Origin: Verrucomicrobiota bacterium
Lineage (GTDB): Bacteria; Verrucomicrobiota; Verrucomicrobiia; Opitutales; Coraliomargaritaceae
NCBI GenBank assembly: GCA_039815375.1
Contig: JBCBZJ010000009.1
Coordinates: 46,296-110,295, forward strand
DNA: 64,000 bases
Reading direction: 5' to 3'
Numbering within the stretch: the stretch's first letter is position 1; every line of letters starts with the position of its first letter. This document shows, piece after piece, positions 1-36,000 of this stretch. A program made the position numbers.

Positions 1-3000
1 ACTGAGATCCACCCCACCAAGCGTAGCGTTCGGGGTAGCCGATGAGTAGGCTTTAACACGTTGATCACTGCTGTCACGAGCTGAAGCCAGAACATTGCCA
101 TTCGGAGAGAGATCACCTGCCGCGTCATCATATGTGTTGATCCGGGCATAACTCGCTGGATCTTTAGTAAAGCTGGCTGTGTGTTTATGTACGGGTAAGT
201 GGAGTTGGTTTAATTGAACATTTTCATAGCCTCCGATCTCACCGATAATGGTGCGTTCGTAGGGAGCAAAATTAGGATTGTAGCCGGTGAAGACTCGCCC
301 TTTGCCATCCGGCAGCCCGAAGGTAGAGCGGCCATCACCGCCATACATGGTGCCAACTAGAGAGAAGAGTGCTGTATTTTGGGTAATTGGCAAGAGCTGG
401 CCCTGACAGGTCGACCAAGTTCTGGGTGCATAATTGCATCCCATAATGATGATTTCGGAGATGAATGGGTCTGCCATAATTAGCGTATCGGTTTTGAGTT
501 AAGGGGAACGTATTCTAAAATTTTTTGAATCAACCAAAGCAGGCCTGATAAACAGTGCCATCTTCATTCTGCTCAAGCGGCTCCATGAAAACGTATCGCT
601 CTTCCATGTGCTCGTTACTTAAGGCAAATGAGCCGGTCCAGGATGGATGGTCTTTGTTCTTATCCAGAAAAAACAAACTGAAAGGCTGTTTACGTATTTC
701 TTTGTAATTGAAGTCGCGCTCTGTGTGCGGCTTAACTTCGCGTAATTCTAGCTCAACTGTATCTCCGTCTACCTGAGCCTTGAAGATAGTTCCTTCAAGC
801 CCTTCGAAGTTATTAAGATTTAGCTCCTGATCCGTAGTAATCATGCTTTTCGAAGATTAGTTAATTTACAATTATCTGATTAGTTAAGTATGAATTATTT
901 AGTCAACGTAATTTATGTAGAAATTACAAAAAAATCACTAGATATATCGAAAAACATACATCCTGTTCTAAGCCGCCCGTAGATCCGGCTTGAGAGTGTT
1001 TTTATCACTAAGCACGATGAAGATCCGAAAAATCTCCTAGCCTTGTTATCACGGTCGTAATGCTCGGTTTCTATTTCGAAGAACTATTCCGGGCCAACCA
1101 TACGGGAAATTATGATATTTTCAGGAAAATAGGATTGGTTCGGTTATTCCTCGAGGCTGATGGTGGGGAATTAGCTGCGAGCTTACCAGGAGTTCTTCCC
1201 TTCAAAGGAGGCTGGCGCTGTCTTAGCGCAGTCACGATCCACAATTGTTTGTGGTCTCGGATGGATTTAGCGATTACATGCAATACTCATTTATCGCAGT
1301 AGTCTGCCGTGCTGACGATACGTTCAATGACCAGCTTTGAGTCCGCTTTGATAATATATTCGCTCATACCCACGTGGTAGGGCGGGTTGCCCCAGTCATA
1401 GGTGTAGCCGAGTTGCGTCCATGGCCAGCCGGGGCTATCCGTATCTCCGCAGATGTAATACTGGTGAGCGCGTGTTGTGTTCATCCATTTACGGTGCTCG
1501 GGTGTTACGTCGCCGGGGAAATCGAGCTCAGCTTGGGAATCGTCTACTTCGGCGTCAGGACTCGGGCGGAATAGATCTGCGGGTCGGACCCATAACTCGA
1601 CAAAGTAACTTTTGTCATCGTTTGGAGGCAGACCGATGAGTTGACGCAGTCGCATATCCAAATCGTCCCCGCCAAATCCCGGCTTAGAGCAGAGGTCCTG
1701 TAGGTAAGGACAGGGAGATACCCATATCAGGTGCGTGCCATTGTTATAAAAGCCATCTGGGCCGTTCTGGTAGTATTGAACGTCCGAGGCCGATATCCAG
1801 GTCTCGACAAGCACGTAGTCCTGTCCGCTGAATGTTTTCCAGAGCAGGTCCTCGTTTGTTTTGCTAATGGAATTGAGCGTGTCGACGATTTCTTTCGGAG
1901 TGGGGTTGGACGCATCATCCAAGGCATCTGCGTAGGCTTGGTCGATATTCGCGAGAACGCTTTCGGGAGCAACACTGGGTATTGGATAGGTTGCGCTCTT
2001 GCTTGCAACAGGGCTTGCCGGAGCTTTGGCCTTTCCGGTTGTGTAGCATCCGCTGATCAGAGAGGCCGTAGTAAAGAGGACGATTGGCAGTGACTTTTTC
2101 ATGAGTGATGATTTAATCGAAGATGTGGTTACTGGTTATTCTCCAATACAAAGTTGACGAAATCGATTTGGATATCGATTTGCTACGCCATCTTCATTTT
2201 ATTACGTCCGCTTCGCTGATTTCGATTTCGTGACAGGTGAGAAGTAAAGCAACGCTTTTATAAATTTGTTAAATATGCTCTAACGGTATGGATCAATGGG
2301 TCGCTGCCGGTGTGTAGAGATGATTTAGTGATTTTCAGGATAAAAGAATTTCTGAAAGCCGTGCGCTTTTGTAGAGGCAAGTCTGGGTCAATCGAATTAA
2401 GTGACCATTGCTCTCATATTTTCGATTTCCTGGTTGCGCAGAGCGGTTGCTAGGTCGGTCACATGTGGGGCGGTCATCATGGAGAGGTGCGTGCCGGGAA
2501 CTTCGATAACGTTGACGGTAGCCGGGCTATAGTCCTGCCAATTTAGTTTGTGGTTTTGGCTTGAGCTCATTTCGCCCAGATCGACATCACTCTCTTGCGC
2601 TTTATAGAGTGTGATTGGCAAATCTACCGATAAGGCGTCAGGCTGATATTGTAAGGTTGCCATCGCGTTATCTCTGTAAACTTGGACGTATTTCCCGAGT
2701 GCTCTGGCGTTGATATGATCCGAGAGAACTTTGTGGCTGAGCAGGCGATTATGCAGTAAAGTGATCTGTTGGTCGTGGTTGAGTTTACGAAGGCCTTCGA
2801 TGCTTAGCTGCAAGTCGATGTGATACAACTTCTGCATCCGTGTGACGATATGTATGAGCCAGGTGGCGGTGTCCCAACTTTCGTATGGGCGCTCGTGCAT
2901 AGCGGATGGGGCGGGGTTATCGAGAATACCTAATTGCTTGATATTTCCCGCAGCTTCCGTGCCCAGCTGGCGCACCATCTCATAGGCGACGAGGCCTCCA

Positions 3001-33000: not shown

Positions 33001-36000
33001 TTGTGGAAGTTGCAGGCCCGCGGCTTAGGTTAGGCTTGATAGCGCTTTACGCCAATTTGAACTCCAGAATCTTACGACCGATTTTAGTCGGATGGACTCC
33101 AGCGAGTTCCAGACCCGCATCCGCAGCGATATCGGTATACTCTTTCTGCGTTCGGGATTTTCCGTTCACCAGGATCATAAAGTTCAGGTCGAGCCAGTTT
33201 GCCATTTCCGAACCTGCCTCATCTGCCACCAGATACTCGATGATCAGCAGGCGTTTGTCGGCATTAGCTGATTCACTTGTTTGGTTGTGCCTCATTGCTT
33301 CACTTAGGCTTTTAAGTAGTTTCTTCGTTTGATGTTGGGGCCAGTTATGAATGGTATTTTTGATAATGTAGAGGTCCCCATCTGTGGGAACCGAATCGAA
33401 GAAGTCGCCCCCGATTAGACGAAGCTTCCCACTGGTTTCCAGGGCCTGCACGGGTTTGTAAGCCGTATCTGAGGATCGAAGTTGTTCGAAGGTGTCCTTA
33501 CGATCAAACAGGGTTCCTTTACTGTTGCCTGCGGACTCGAGAATAGCTGTCAAGAAGGAGCCATGTCCGCCGCCAACATCAATGATGTGCTTGAATTGAT
33601 CGAATGGGAAAGACTTCGACAGAACTTGGTCATCACGGACTGAAAGGTCTGTCATCGCTTGGTGGAAGACTGCTTTGAGTTCGGGTTTGTCTGCTAAATA
33701 ATCAAGTGTTCCAGATGCGGCTGTGTCTGCATATTTGCTACTTGGACCTTGTTTGAGGATGTCAGTAAGCTGGCCCCATGGATGATAGCGGTAGGGTGCT
33801 CCATTGAGGCGTGCAGCTGCACGTTGGCTCTGTGGATGATCGCTGCGAAGCAGGTCTCCGAGAGGACTTAGCACATAACCGTCATCATGATCAGTCTCGA
33901 TCAAGTCCAGATTGGCAGCGCAGCGGAGAAAGCGTTCAAGCATTTCGGTGGCAGTTCCTGTTTGCTCAGCAAGATAATCTACGAAACGGCGCTCTCCATT
34001 AAAGCAGTCTGCTATGCCGAGCTCTGCAAATGTATAGGTCACGGAAGTGGCCCAGTTGCCGTAGATTAACTTGTGTACTTGAGGGATGAGCGAGGCCATG
34101 TGTATTACTCTTGGTAGTTTGAATGTGGATATTTCTATCTATGATCGCGTTATTATTCGATCTTTCATGATGGAATCAACTCTAGGAATAAATCATTTGC
34201 ATCAGGAACCCTCTACTGCCTTCTCCAATGATCCTGGATCCAATTCAAAATGTAGAAGTTCTGTAATTGAGGAATCCGTCGCTATAGCGGATTGATAATC
34301 CTCAATGTTGGAGATGTCGAAAAGTGACCACTCTCTAAGCACTTTTGTGCCTTGCTTATGGTTTACAGTGATTTGTAGGTCCCGGTCATCTAGAAAGTTA
34401 ACGGAAAAAGTATCCAATTGCAGAGCTAAACCGAGGCCCACTGCTTTGATATAGGCTTCCTTGCAGGTCCAGCATCGATAGAAGGCATGTAGACGCTCGC
34501 TTTCCGGTAGCTCGCGAAGGTTCGTATACTCCCGAGGCGAGAAAAAGCGTTCTGCGAGTTTCATGTAATCCAGTGGGCGCTTCGGGTGGCAGCACTCGAT
34601 ATCGATCCCGACTGGAGTAGATTTCGTGATCGCAATTTGTCCGTAATCGGCGGAGTGGGAGACGTTGAAACAAACGAACTCCCCCGAATCTATTTTCTTG
34701 AGCGAAGGTTTTCCATGCAGCGAGTATTCAATGTTCAGCTTTTCTGGTATTTTCTGTAGATACCGTGCAAGGAGAAGTCGCAGGCTGGCACGTGTGACGG
34801 TGTAGGAAGTCGAATGCTCTTCAAATTTAAATCGCAGAGCTCTCTCTTGCTCGTCGGAGCTTAATACTGTGAAGAGGTCTTTCTTTATTGGTTTGATCCG
34901 GTCAATGCATAGAGTCCAGATATGCGCTGTGCGCTTATTTATAGTCATAACGCTTTTATCCTGAATCATATAACCCTATTAGTTGCTGGTAGGACTTCCG
35001 GGGCAATACATCTCTGGCCGCTGCGTAATTTACTAATTCATATCACCGTGAGAGCAAAGTGCTTTTGGGAGCAGGTTCGTGTCGATATTTCCGTAGGCCG
35101 ACCGAGGGTCCTGATCGCTGCCGAAAAATGAAGAATGGTGAGTCGTGCGTAAGCGGAATTATCAAGTTCGGCAGATCGTGATGACAATTGTCCTGTTCCT
35201 ATCATTCTGACGAATGAAAGAACTGACTTGCTTCAAGCCGTAAATGCATAAATCGGTGCGGATGTCTCCTGAGAAATCAACCTACGCGCCAACCATTAGC
35301 ATGTGTGCTACCAGAGATGCTAATTATGGTAAACTGCGTGCAGCAGCTTCTCACGGATGAACCCTTCTCTTTCCTTCTTTCTGTTGATTGATTGGCTCAG
35401 CAAAATGGCTGCATTTTACAACTCATCTAGCAATACGAGGTTTTCAAAGAACTTGAATTTTTGAGGTATCCAAAGGCGTCAGGCACAAAAAATAAAGATT
35501 TGCGTTGATGTCTGTTTCTCTAGCTAAGCCCGTTCGCTCTACTGTTACGCAGATCGAACGGGTTTCGCTGTCTTTGTCTACTCTGTGGCAAGCGTCAGAG
35601 TAAGGATCGTGATGTGAATCCAGTATAGATATTAATCACAGCGATTCACATCAGGCTTGTGATTGTTAGAACTTTATTGTGTCCACTTAGAGGTCATAGA
35701 GTCGCGTTGAGTTTGAAACTCGACCGCATCCAAAGCTTCGCTGTAGATCTGAATTTCACCGAATATCCCGTCAGTTTTGTGGTTCGTATTCGACGAGCCG
35801 CCTATATACATAGGAAAGTTTGGTGAGAAATCGGCATTTGGCGCAATTGTTTGAGTTGTGGCATTGCCCAACGAATCCCAGTAAGCGACTACACCGGTTG
35901 AAGCTTCGTAAGTCAGGCCGACGACAAAGGATTGTCCGGCAGTCACCCGCGAGCCGATGATGTTCGTAATAATAGTCGCGTCAGACAAACGAACATGGAT

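Follow-up and report, generated by a model that had tools for sequence, protein, structure and literature searches.

Within the window analyzed here, 64,000 nucleotides of contig JBCBZJ010000009.1 from a Verrucomicrobiota bacterium, lies an intact gene cluster of 33 kb—real and not an artefact—that probably encodes a triple-hybrid pathway, in which a lipid synthase, a modular PKS, and an NRPS together make an exported amphiphile. Its product is likely a long-chain 3-oxo- or 3-hydroxyacyl-aspartate, or a tetramate thereof, bearing a 3-amino sugar and sulfate. A Pfam scan finds every gene named in a first-pass annotation in its place, including the synthase with its order ER-KS-AT-ACP-KR (Table 1). 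The NRPS, PKS, and synthase span positions 2397–28643 with gaps of less than 9 kb, which lies inside the 20 kb by which triple hybrids are recognized.

Table 1. Features of the cluster and its edges in window positions. Homologue counts are taken over 80 synthase-family loci; L numbers denote single loci.
Feature	Position	Strand	Remarks
Lipoprotein	1287..2102	-	family unnamed; outside left repeat, within larger variable region
Host dispersed repeat	2133..2283	.	natural left edge; found by blastn on 13 further contigs of the same genome; read contigs break here
One-module NRPS, TubC_N-C-A-T-TE	2397..6615	-	1405 aa; from read contigs and recorded protein
Modular PKS, AT0-ACP-KS-AT(malonyl, HAFH)-DH(degenerate)-ACP	6612..12221	-	no KR; C-terminal EGEI docking tail
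Free-standing ACP	12483..12788	+	101 aa; PP-binding E 0.003, below cut-off; homologues in 7/80
GT28-like glycosyltransferase	12790..13965	+	homologues in 4/80, 38% in L064
PAPS-type sulfotransferase (Sulfotransfer_3)	13997..14734	-	homologues in 0/80
DegT-family PLP aminotransferase	14746..15984	-	412 aa from likely ATG; best PDB match AHBA synthase 1b9h; 54% homologue in L094, adjoining a synthase-family gene
Gfo/Idh/MocA NAD oxidoreductase	15965..17044	-	best matches 3q2k/3q2i (presumably WlbA); 48% homologue in L094
GT_PLOD glycosyltransferase	17117..17929	+	likely start about 17147; 42–52% homologues in 4/80
Partner AT2-DH with PPTase N-half remnant	17999..20932	+	no KS; DH His/Asp dyad intact
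Iterative lipid synthase, ER(FabK/NMO type)-KS-AT-ACP-KR	21153..28643	+	2496 aa; single ACP; catalytic motifs intact
123-aa ORF between synthase and SDR	28673..29044	+	no Pfam match; homologues in 0/80
Stand-alone SDR ketoreductase	29041..29817	+	candidate in-trans reductase
DUF6072 protein	29984..30394	+	homologues in 0/80
65-aa ORF upstream of exporter	30726..30923	+	hydrophobic N-terminus; no family over cut-off
MsbA-like ABC exporter	30970..33033	+	homologues in 7/80
Class I O/N-methyltransferase with dimerisation domain	33047..34099	-	homologues in 0/80
Sfp/HetI-type PPTase	34202..34969	-	no second PPTase of this kind found in the genome
Second host dispersed repeat	35172..35407	.	natural right edge

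The cluster genes are arranged in several divergent units, and promoter (7 versus 5.8) and terminator (11 versus 10.7) predictions are about as frequent as in shuffled sequence. The block had been drawn from position 1287; its named genes are in place, but the lipoprotein that opens it is separated from the rest by a host dispersed repeat and may not belong to the cluster. In the assembly, the NRPS falls into two ORFs (5959–6615 and 2397–6161), which had been annotated as two genes (g01334/35). The reading as one module ending in a thioesterase holds, whereas the split does not. Contigs built from the reads of two runs, X1 and X3, lack base 6020, and the recorded 1405-aa protein P0446—with a whole C domain—corresponds to the upstream ORF over 198 aa and to the downstream ORF over 1205 aa. 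Hence, the NRPS is one gene, and its frameshift near 6020 was introduced in error by the assembly.

Judged by its domains, the core of the cluster is an Ars/Type-P-like single-ACP synthase with an AT-DH partner. The synthase carries one ACP, likewise in both orthologues, and the catalytic motifs—among them those of ER (His), KR, and DH—are intact across all three orthologue trios. The partner (g01343), previously listed as a PS-DH protein, does encode a DH, yet not a DH alone, as it combines AT and DH with a PPTase remnant. The KS of the synthase falls into a nine-row clade (support 97) with the loci L064, L074, L075, and L105; these encode glycosyltransferases and deacetylases and, for the most part, a free ACP as well. 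Type P and PfaA-like KSs remain together in one 21-row clade of this tree, so that the Ars-like assignment is taken from the architecture. The wider ER-KS-AT-ACP family is large, with 5547 matches among 8000 scored candidates, mostly without a product. A genome-collection scan with the synthase alone returned only four Desulfuromonas PfaA-like loci, and in a metagenome scan with the AT-DH trio none of 160 pattern matches was confirmed. SCO6826-7 of S. coelicolor may have the ER-fused architecture; the available part of PMC4943196 does not give its domain order. The synthase is 37% identical over 2041 aa to a Beijerinckia synthase named Type P (PMC3098273), which is encoded in a plasmid operon with two KS III/type-III-like genes and a DH-PPTase.

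The PKS is a true modular PKS and not a mis-called pfaBC gene: its KS clusters with modular KSs (six rows, support 98) and apart from partner KSs. Orthologues at 48–57% identity are found in two other read assemblies; of the three proteins, two lack the DH His and one lacks the Asp. No adenylating starter domain is found in the PKS by Pfam. The gene opens with AT0, which in all three proteins lies among partner ATs in a clade of 21 rows (support 100) and apart from malonyl-loading ATs, in a quick tree that places AT0 on a long branch (2.06). Since AT0 groups with partner acyltransferases rather than with PKS loading ATs, this suggests a dedicated domain for lipid hand-over.

The docking tail, the TubC_N domain, and a 4-nt overlap between PKS end and NRPS start tie both proteins together. 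The pocket of the NRPS A domain reads DLTKIGHIGK and agrees at seven of eight positions with the Asp code DLTKVGHI of SrfAB-M2 (PMC3207962). The domain would thus be of Asp type, with the reservation that such codes can mislead (Asn, Glu, hydroxy-Asp). The thioesterase bears its Ser and His motifs and has a type I NRPS TE as best PDB match. A search of cluster representatives with the NRPS returned large multimodule NRPSs throughout.

Around these genes lies a set of tailoring functions. The free ACP, overlooked before, sits directly upstream of the GT28-like gene, whose product has no useful PDB relative. The Gfo/Idh/MocA protein is likely a nucleotide-sugar 3-dehydrogenase. An APS kinase is encoded in the genome. 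The stand-alone PPTase replaces the truncated one of the partner. The SDR, the 123-aa ORF, and the 65-aa ORF were absent from the first-pass annotation; the structure model of the 123-aa product (pLDDT 51) has no fold match.

From this gene content, we infer the chemical steps, chain length, tailoring order, release mode, and function as follows. AT2 of the partner would pass the chain on to the free ACP. There, both glycosyltransferases would add the sugar or sugars—one probably a 3-amino-3-deoxyhexose from the Gfo/DegT pair. Sulfotransferase and methyltransferase would decorate the chain on or off the carrier. AT0, an AT2-type copy fused to the PKS, would load the acyl chain onto the PKS, and a single malonyl extension without KR would give a 3-oxoacyl chain, which the SDR may reduce in trans. 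The NRPS would then add aspartate, and the TE would release an N-acyl-aspartate or close a 3-acyl tetramate ring. For the latter, a 3-oxoacyl chain has to reach the last NRPS module, as expected here from the missing KR and the degenerate DH; the SDR could undo this. The ABC exporter would send the product out as a surface lipid, surfactant, or antagonist. The long-chain, amino-acid-capped, glycosylated, and probably sulfated lipid proposed earlier is still the best reading, with the amino acid narrowed to Asp; the heterocyst-glycolipid-like chemistry attached to it fails on domain content. More tentatively, and with some doubt on our side, the cluster might stand for a new branch of triple hybrids, in which a duplicated partner acyltransferase turned into the PKS loading domain and relays a glycosylated long acyl chain from the free ACP, resulting in a two-headed lipid with a sulfated amino-sugar on one side and aspartate or an Asp-derived tetramate on the other; such a scaffold was not found in the literature searched.

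Several other readings have to be weighed against this pathway. The cluster had been described as PUFA-synthase-like and heterocyst-glycolipid-like, and the PfaA model TIGR02813 (922.8 bits) and HetI as best model of the PPTase, both below cut-off, point in that direction. The single ACP and the absence of KS-CLF, FabA-type DH pair, HglC-type KS-CLF-AT, and thioester reductase among the ORFs scanned make PUFA or heterocyst-glycolipid synthesis very improbable. Equally far-fetched is a decaying island or a mis-binned foreign contig. The assembly frameshift, the degenerate PKS DH, and the truncated PPTase part might be read as signs of decay; however, the frameshift is absent from the reads of two runs, and the other two traits are common to all three orthologues. 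As for mis-binning, the same contig bears genes 82–88% identical to those of same-genus genomes, host repeats flank both edges, and the depth is even at 13–15. Both variants are refuted as far as sequence can do so.

The genes might also form two separate adjacent pathways: a synthase/glycosyltransferase glycolipid cassette and a small PKS-NRPS primed by another acyl source. Both halves are transcribed in different directions, and the cassette of synthase, ACP, GT28, and GT_PLOD occurs without modular PKS in other loci. We consider this unlikely, as AT0 descends from the synthase-partner AT clade and a single PPTase serves all. In addition, the orthologues of PKS, AT-DH, and synthase (48, 47, and 55%) in one other assembly each come from a contig 105,415 bp long, a shared length that links them indirectly. 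A further possibility, rather unlikely in our view, keeps one pathway but has the synthase make a short or partly unsaturated/polyol chain, leading to a diffusible glycosylated tetramate-type antibiotic instead of a long-chain lipid. There is no CLF from which length could be predicted, the precursor of a tetramate is usually a 3-oxoacyl-amino acid thioester, and chitinimine, as far as the accessible text describes it, shows that a synthase of this kind can omit ER or DH reactions. The intact ER His, KR, and DH motifs speak against it, as does ArsA—the sole characterised relative in architecture—with its C22–C26 chains.

The single pathway favored here was presumably acquired horizontally. The rarity noted before holds on re-testing: the ER region of the synthase is found in 0 of 100 genomes of the taxonomic family, GT_PLOD in 1 of 300 of the order, and DUF6072 over cut-off in 0 of 300 of the phylum (one below cut-off). 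This patchy distribution and broken synteny support the acquisition claimed earlier, whereas composition does not. Of 181 control windows, 36% attain the dinucleotide distance of 22.0 measured here; the shares are 9% for tetranucleotides and 5% for GC, a negative test for transfer. No integrase or tRNA was found at the locus, and a clean empty site is absent, the two flanks lying on different contigs in the genomes G002 and G007.

The cluster supplies a candidate for lipid hand-over—an AT-ACP loader of synthase-partner ancestry—for a passage from PUFA-synthase-like enzyme to PKS-NRPS that the chitinimine paper, in its accessible part, leaves open. Such a loader might be useful to load long chains on engineered assembly lines. 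The cluster also connects the large ER-KS-AT-ACP family with a sub-cassette for glycolipids. Its marine host extends the range of lineages, and the metabolites linked to this lineage in the cited literature came from ascidian symbionts.

Among known systems, canonical PfaABCD PUFA and heterocyst glycolipid (Type F) synthases share homologous KS, AT, KR, and ER domains. In contrast to these, the cluster bears neither the four to six tandem ACPs nor the KS-CLF and two DH/isomerase domains of PfaABCD—the partner holds AT and one PKS-type DH without KS—nor a FabA-type DH pair or the thioester reductase that we take to be a Type F trait. Closer are Azotobacter ArsABCD and the Beijerinckia Type P system, which likewise have an ER-fused type I single-gene synthase, a DH(-PPTase) partner, and an acyl chain passed from the ACP. 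Here, the acceptor is a modular PKS-NRPS instead of type III PKSs, of which none is encoded among the cluster ORFs; the partner bears an extra AT, and the PPTase is separate.

The earlier claim of a new natural-product class proved too strong. The published survey, in the portion available, describes 63 clusters combining lipid synthase, PKS, and NRPS with four characterised product families (PMC13291983), and Opitutaceae clusters have already been linked to palmerolide (PMC8739492). With triple hybrids such as zeamine, megapolipeptin, and chitinimine published, the cluster is a new variant and not a new class. It has apparently not been listed for Verrucomicrobiota, a phylum absent from the accessible supplement of that survey. 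The systems of chitinimine, megapolipeptin, and zeamine/fabclavine also lead from lipid synthase, PKS, and NRPS to an amphiphile, and for chitinimine the lipid is proposed to go directly to the PKS by the same logic as here. According to the accessible texts, they differ by PfaA/BC/D-type machinery with tandem ACPs, KS-CLF, and four to seven modules; a dedicated AT-ACP loader or glycosylation is not described there. Going by its published text only, the Ottowia thiooxydans DSM 14619 cluster (AUGX01000034.1; PMC13291983) resembles this one in its fused pfaD-pfaA, a partner without KS-CLF, a linked PKS-NRPS, and a glycosyltransferase. It bears a trimodular PKS-NRPS and a NAPAA-type NRPS, whereas the cluster described here combines one extension and one Asp module with an amino-sugar pair, two glycosyltransferases, a sulfotransferase, and a free ACP.

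The PKS/NRPS/tailoring block claimed by the first-pass annotation is borne out by ORF and family scans of the window, which confirm it at ~2.4–35 kb, and the cluster is real and intact. As working borders, we adopted two dispersed host repeats: a ~150-bp noncoding, REP/MITE-like element at 2133–2283, of which 70–90% copies lie on at least 13 other contigs of the genome, and a member of a second repeat family at 35172–35407. Elsewhere in the genome, the queries used found no second type I PKS, NRPS module, or Sfp-type PPTase.

Gene content and strand of the cluster according to ORF and family scans
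Feature	Position	Strand
PKS	6612–12221	-
NRPS, two overlapping frames in the assembly		-
Free ACP and GT28-like gene, after PKS/NRPS		+
Oxidoreductase, DegT aminotransferase, sulfotransferase unit		-
GT_PLOD, AT-DH (partner), 2496-aa synthase, 123-aa ORF, SDR	17999–20932 (AT-DH); 21153–28643 (synthase)	+
DUF6072, 65-aa ORF, ABC exporter		+
Methyltransferase and PPTase		-

In the assembly, the NRPS frame breaks directly behind the HHxxxDG motif of the C domain. Two of four sequencing runs are informative here, and both leave out base 6020: X1, which may be the source sample (a contig of 15,828 bp at depth 14.7), and X3, a diverged strain from another sample; X2 and X4 are without coverage at this base, X4—from a second marine study—otherwise giving pieces nearly identical to the window. 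A 1405-aa protein on record from the X1 contig is identical to the two window ORFs for 198 and 1205 residues and has the order TubC_N-C-A-T-TE. The NRPS is hence intact—one-module and TE-ended as first annotated, but not split. Its A pocket, hand-read from motif anchors in GrsA numbering, is DLTKIGHIGK. The text of PMC3207962 gives the Asp code DLTKVGHI for SrfAB-M2 and DLTKIGHV for pyoverdine Asp modules, with which that of PMC10548584 is consistent.

The synthase combines an N-terminal NMO/FabK-type ER with ECGGH, a KS with Cys-His-His, an AT with GHSYG, a single ACP, and a KR with LED and YxxxN. Its first 340 residues (21153–22200) bear a GNESGG motif that echoes the GRECGGH of the ER and is conserved across the synthase family—perhaps a second, inactive ER barrel. 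The partner has an AT with GHSNG and a single PKS-type DH whose His and Asp are in place, and ~100 of its residues match the initial portion of the PPTase that is fused to full-length partners, in seven of seven tested (E 8e-11 to 3e-4). This stretch shows no match to the stand-alone PPTase, whose separate gene would compensate for the remnant, as in metagenome locus L074. The PKS reads AT0-ACP-KS-AT-DH-ACP, with a malonyl HAFH motif in its second AT and no KR; its DH is without His in two orthologues and without Asp in the third. At position 11428, within the PKS gene, the X1 and X3 contigs have A and the assembly T, likely a second assembly error or a variant.

The loading AT0-ACP is the least ordinary feature of the cluster and its testable part. 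AT0 has 27% identity to the partner AT across 390 aa, and both carry the motifs FPGFG, NC, and GPxxRLxGF. A quick tree built from 54 AT domains places the three AT0s, on a long branch, inside a 21-row clade of partner ATs (support 100), apart from malonyl-loading ATs and FabD. From ancestry alone, we interpret AT0-ACP as a putative hand-over unit for the synthase-made chain. Among the 120 PKS matches listed, no protein beyond the orthologue set covers the whole PKS query.

Among the matches listed (Logan records), AT-DH (53 and 47% identity), PKS (57 and 48%), and synthase (63 and 55%) have two close full-length relatives each. In one set, all three proteins are each on a 105,415-bp contig, in the other, two are each on a 15,918-bp contig; these matching sizes indicate that the cluster is putatively conserved in two or more further organisms. 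The synthase family is large (5547 of 8000 scored candidates), its named neighbors being mostly cyanobacteria. At 37% identity over 2041 aa, it includes a Beijerinckia plasmid synthase; downstream of this lie two KS III-type genes and a DH-PPTase, the latter matching the partner DH at E 3e-11. This arrangement is termed Type P in the text of PMC3098273, where the Azotobacter ars type leads to C22–C26 chains; ArsA is described in passages of PMC4824345 and PMC6274091 as a fatty-acid synthase passing ACP-bound chains to ArsB/C. A quick tree of 34 KS rows puts the synthase trio into a nine-row clade (support 97) alongside the GT-bearing loci L064, L074, L075, and L105; as the wider clade holds both Type P and a PfaA-like KS, this tree alone is no proof of Ars-type behavior.

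Of 541 metagenome loci, the best 80 (median length 12.9 kb, with 34 at least 15 kb long) were surveyed for their neighborhoods. Counts are lower bounds owing to these short loci: free ACP and ABC homologues occur in seven each, SDR in four, NRPS and PPTase in two each, GT28 and GT_PLOD in the same four, and Gfo and DegT once each, both in L094 (48% and 54%); sulfotransferase, methyltransferase, DUF6072, lipoprotein, and 123-aa ORF homologues in none of the 80. The best family matches of the modular KS (33–36%, top eight rows) are iterative KSs. Around the family, sulfur chemistry turns up again in different enzymes: L016:422–1771 codes for an ACP-sulfotransferase fusion and lies immediately upstream of a Microcystis-like synthase, L086 has a sulfotransferase, L043 has arylsulfotransferases, and L023 and L036 have ATP sulfurylase-APS kinase (50 of 82 small and 6 large ORFs scanned). 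Locus L043:1–22024 combines a family synthase with an NRPS that ends in a TE, with a type II TE, and with its two arylsulfotransferases, and L037 resembles it by tblastn and ORF sizes; both would encode another sulfated hybrid. A recurring cassette of family synthase, GT28, GT4, GT_PLOD, and deacetylase (YdjC or polysaccharide type), mostly with a free ACP, in DNA of 33–65% GC (L064, L074, L075, and L032), is probably an undescribed glycolipid pathway.

The best solved relatives of the Gfo/DegT pair are Gfo dehydrogenases and AHBA-synthase/inosose aminotransferases. Such pairs usually oxidize a nucleotide sugar at C3 and then aminate it; an aminocyclitol would be the alternative product. The genome encodes an APS kinase, so that PAPS can be made.

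The ER region occurs in 0 of 100 family genomes (61 at least 90% complete; 0 of 8 in the genus), and in 1 of 400 genomes of the order and 4 of 400 of the phylum, these samples overlapping; the PKS-NRPS is absent from those order/phylum carriers that were fetched. A DegT orthologue is found in none and a sulfotransferase in 2 of the 100 family genomes. Synteny with genomes G002 and G007 breaks off ~11.8 kb before the left end of the window and restarts at 40459, which places the cluster inside a lineage-specific region of ~52 kb. This gap and the missing ER region favor the horizontal acquisition proposed earlier, but composition is host-like and no donor can be named; an acquisition that is old or from a similar donor appears likely. 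Just left of the cluster (L015:16925–19140 and window 530–844) are two tandem tail-collar genes (~70–77% DNA identity), a GNAT acetyltransferase, and DUF6916, not found in five same-genus genomes. The lineage-specific region also holds a 1369-aa secreted-looking protein (35674–39783) that carries two CxxCH motifs and, at its C terminus, a LamG domain. To the right follows a sulfatase-rich sugar-use locus (40459–62103) with SSF and GPH transporters, fuconolactonase-like protein, aldolase, three sulfatases, GH130, and TonB receptor.

We infer the product of the cluster wholly from its genes. The open literature (subscription papers and MIBiG aside) yielded no description of this cluster or of an AT0-ACP loader, and the covered parts of PMC4247773 and PMC4943196 add no product for the synthase family. 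Palmerolide is linked to an Opitutaceae symbiont in the text of PMC8739492. The supplement text of PMC13291983, figures aside, holds zero occurrences of Verrucomicrob, Opitut, Coraliomargarita, or sulfotransferase; its Figure S6 may be relevant to how new AT0 is. The main text of the paper charts 63 lipid-synthase/PKS/NRPS clusters, whose named products are zeamine, fabclavine, megapolipeptin, and chitinimine, so that the supposed new natural-product class belongs to a kind already known. By text description, its Ottowia cluster—with fused pfaDA gene, KS-CLF-less partner, and glycosyltransferase—is closest in layout.
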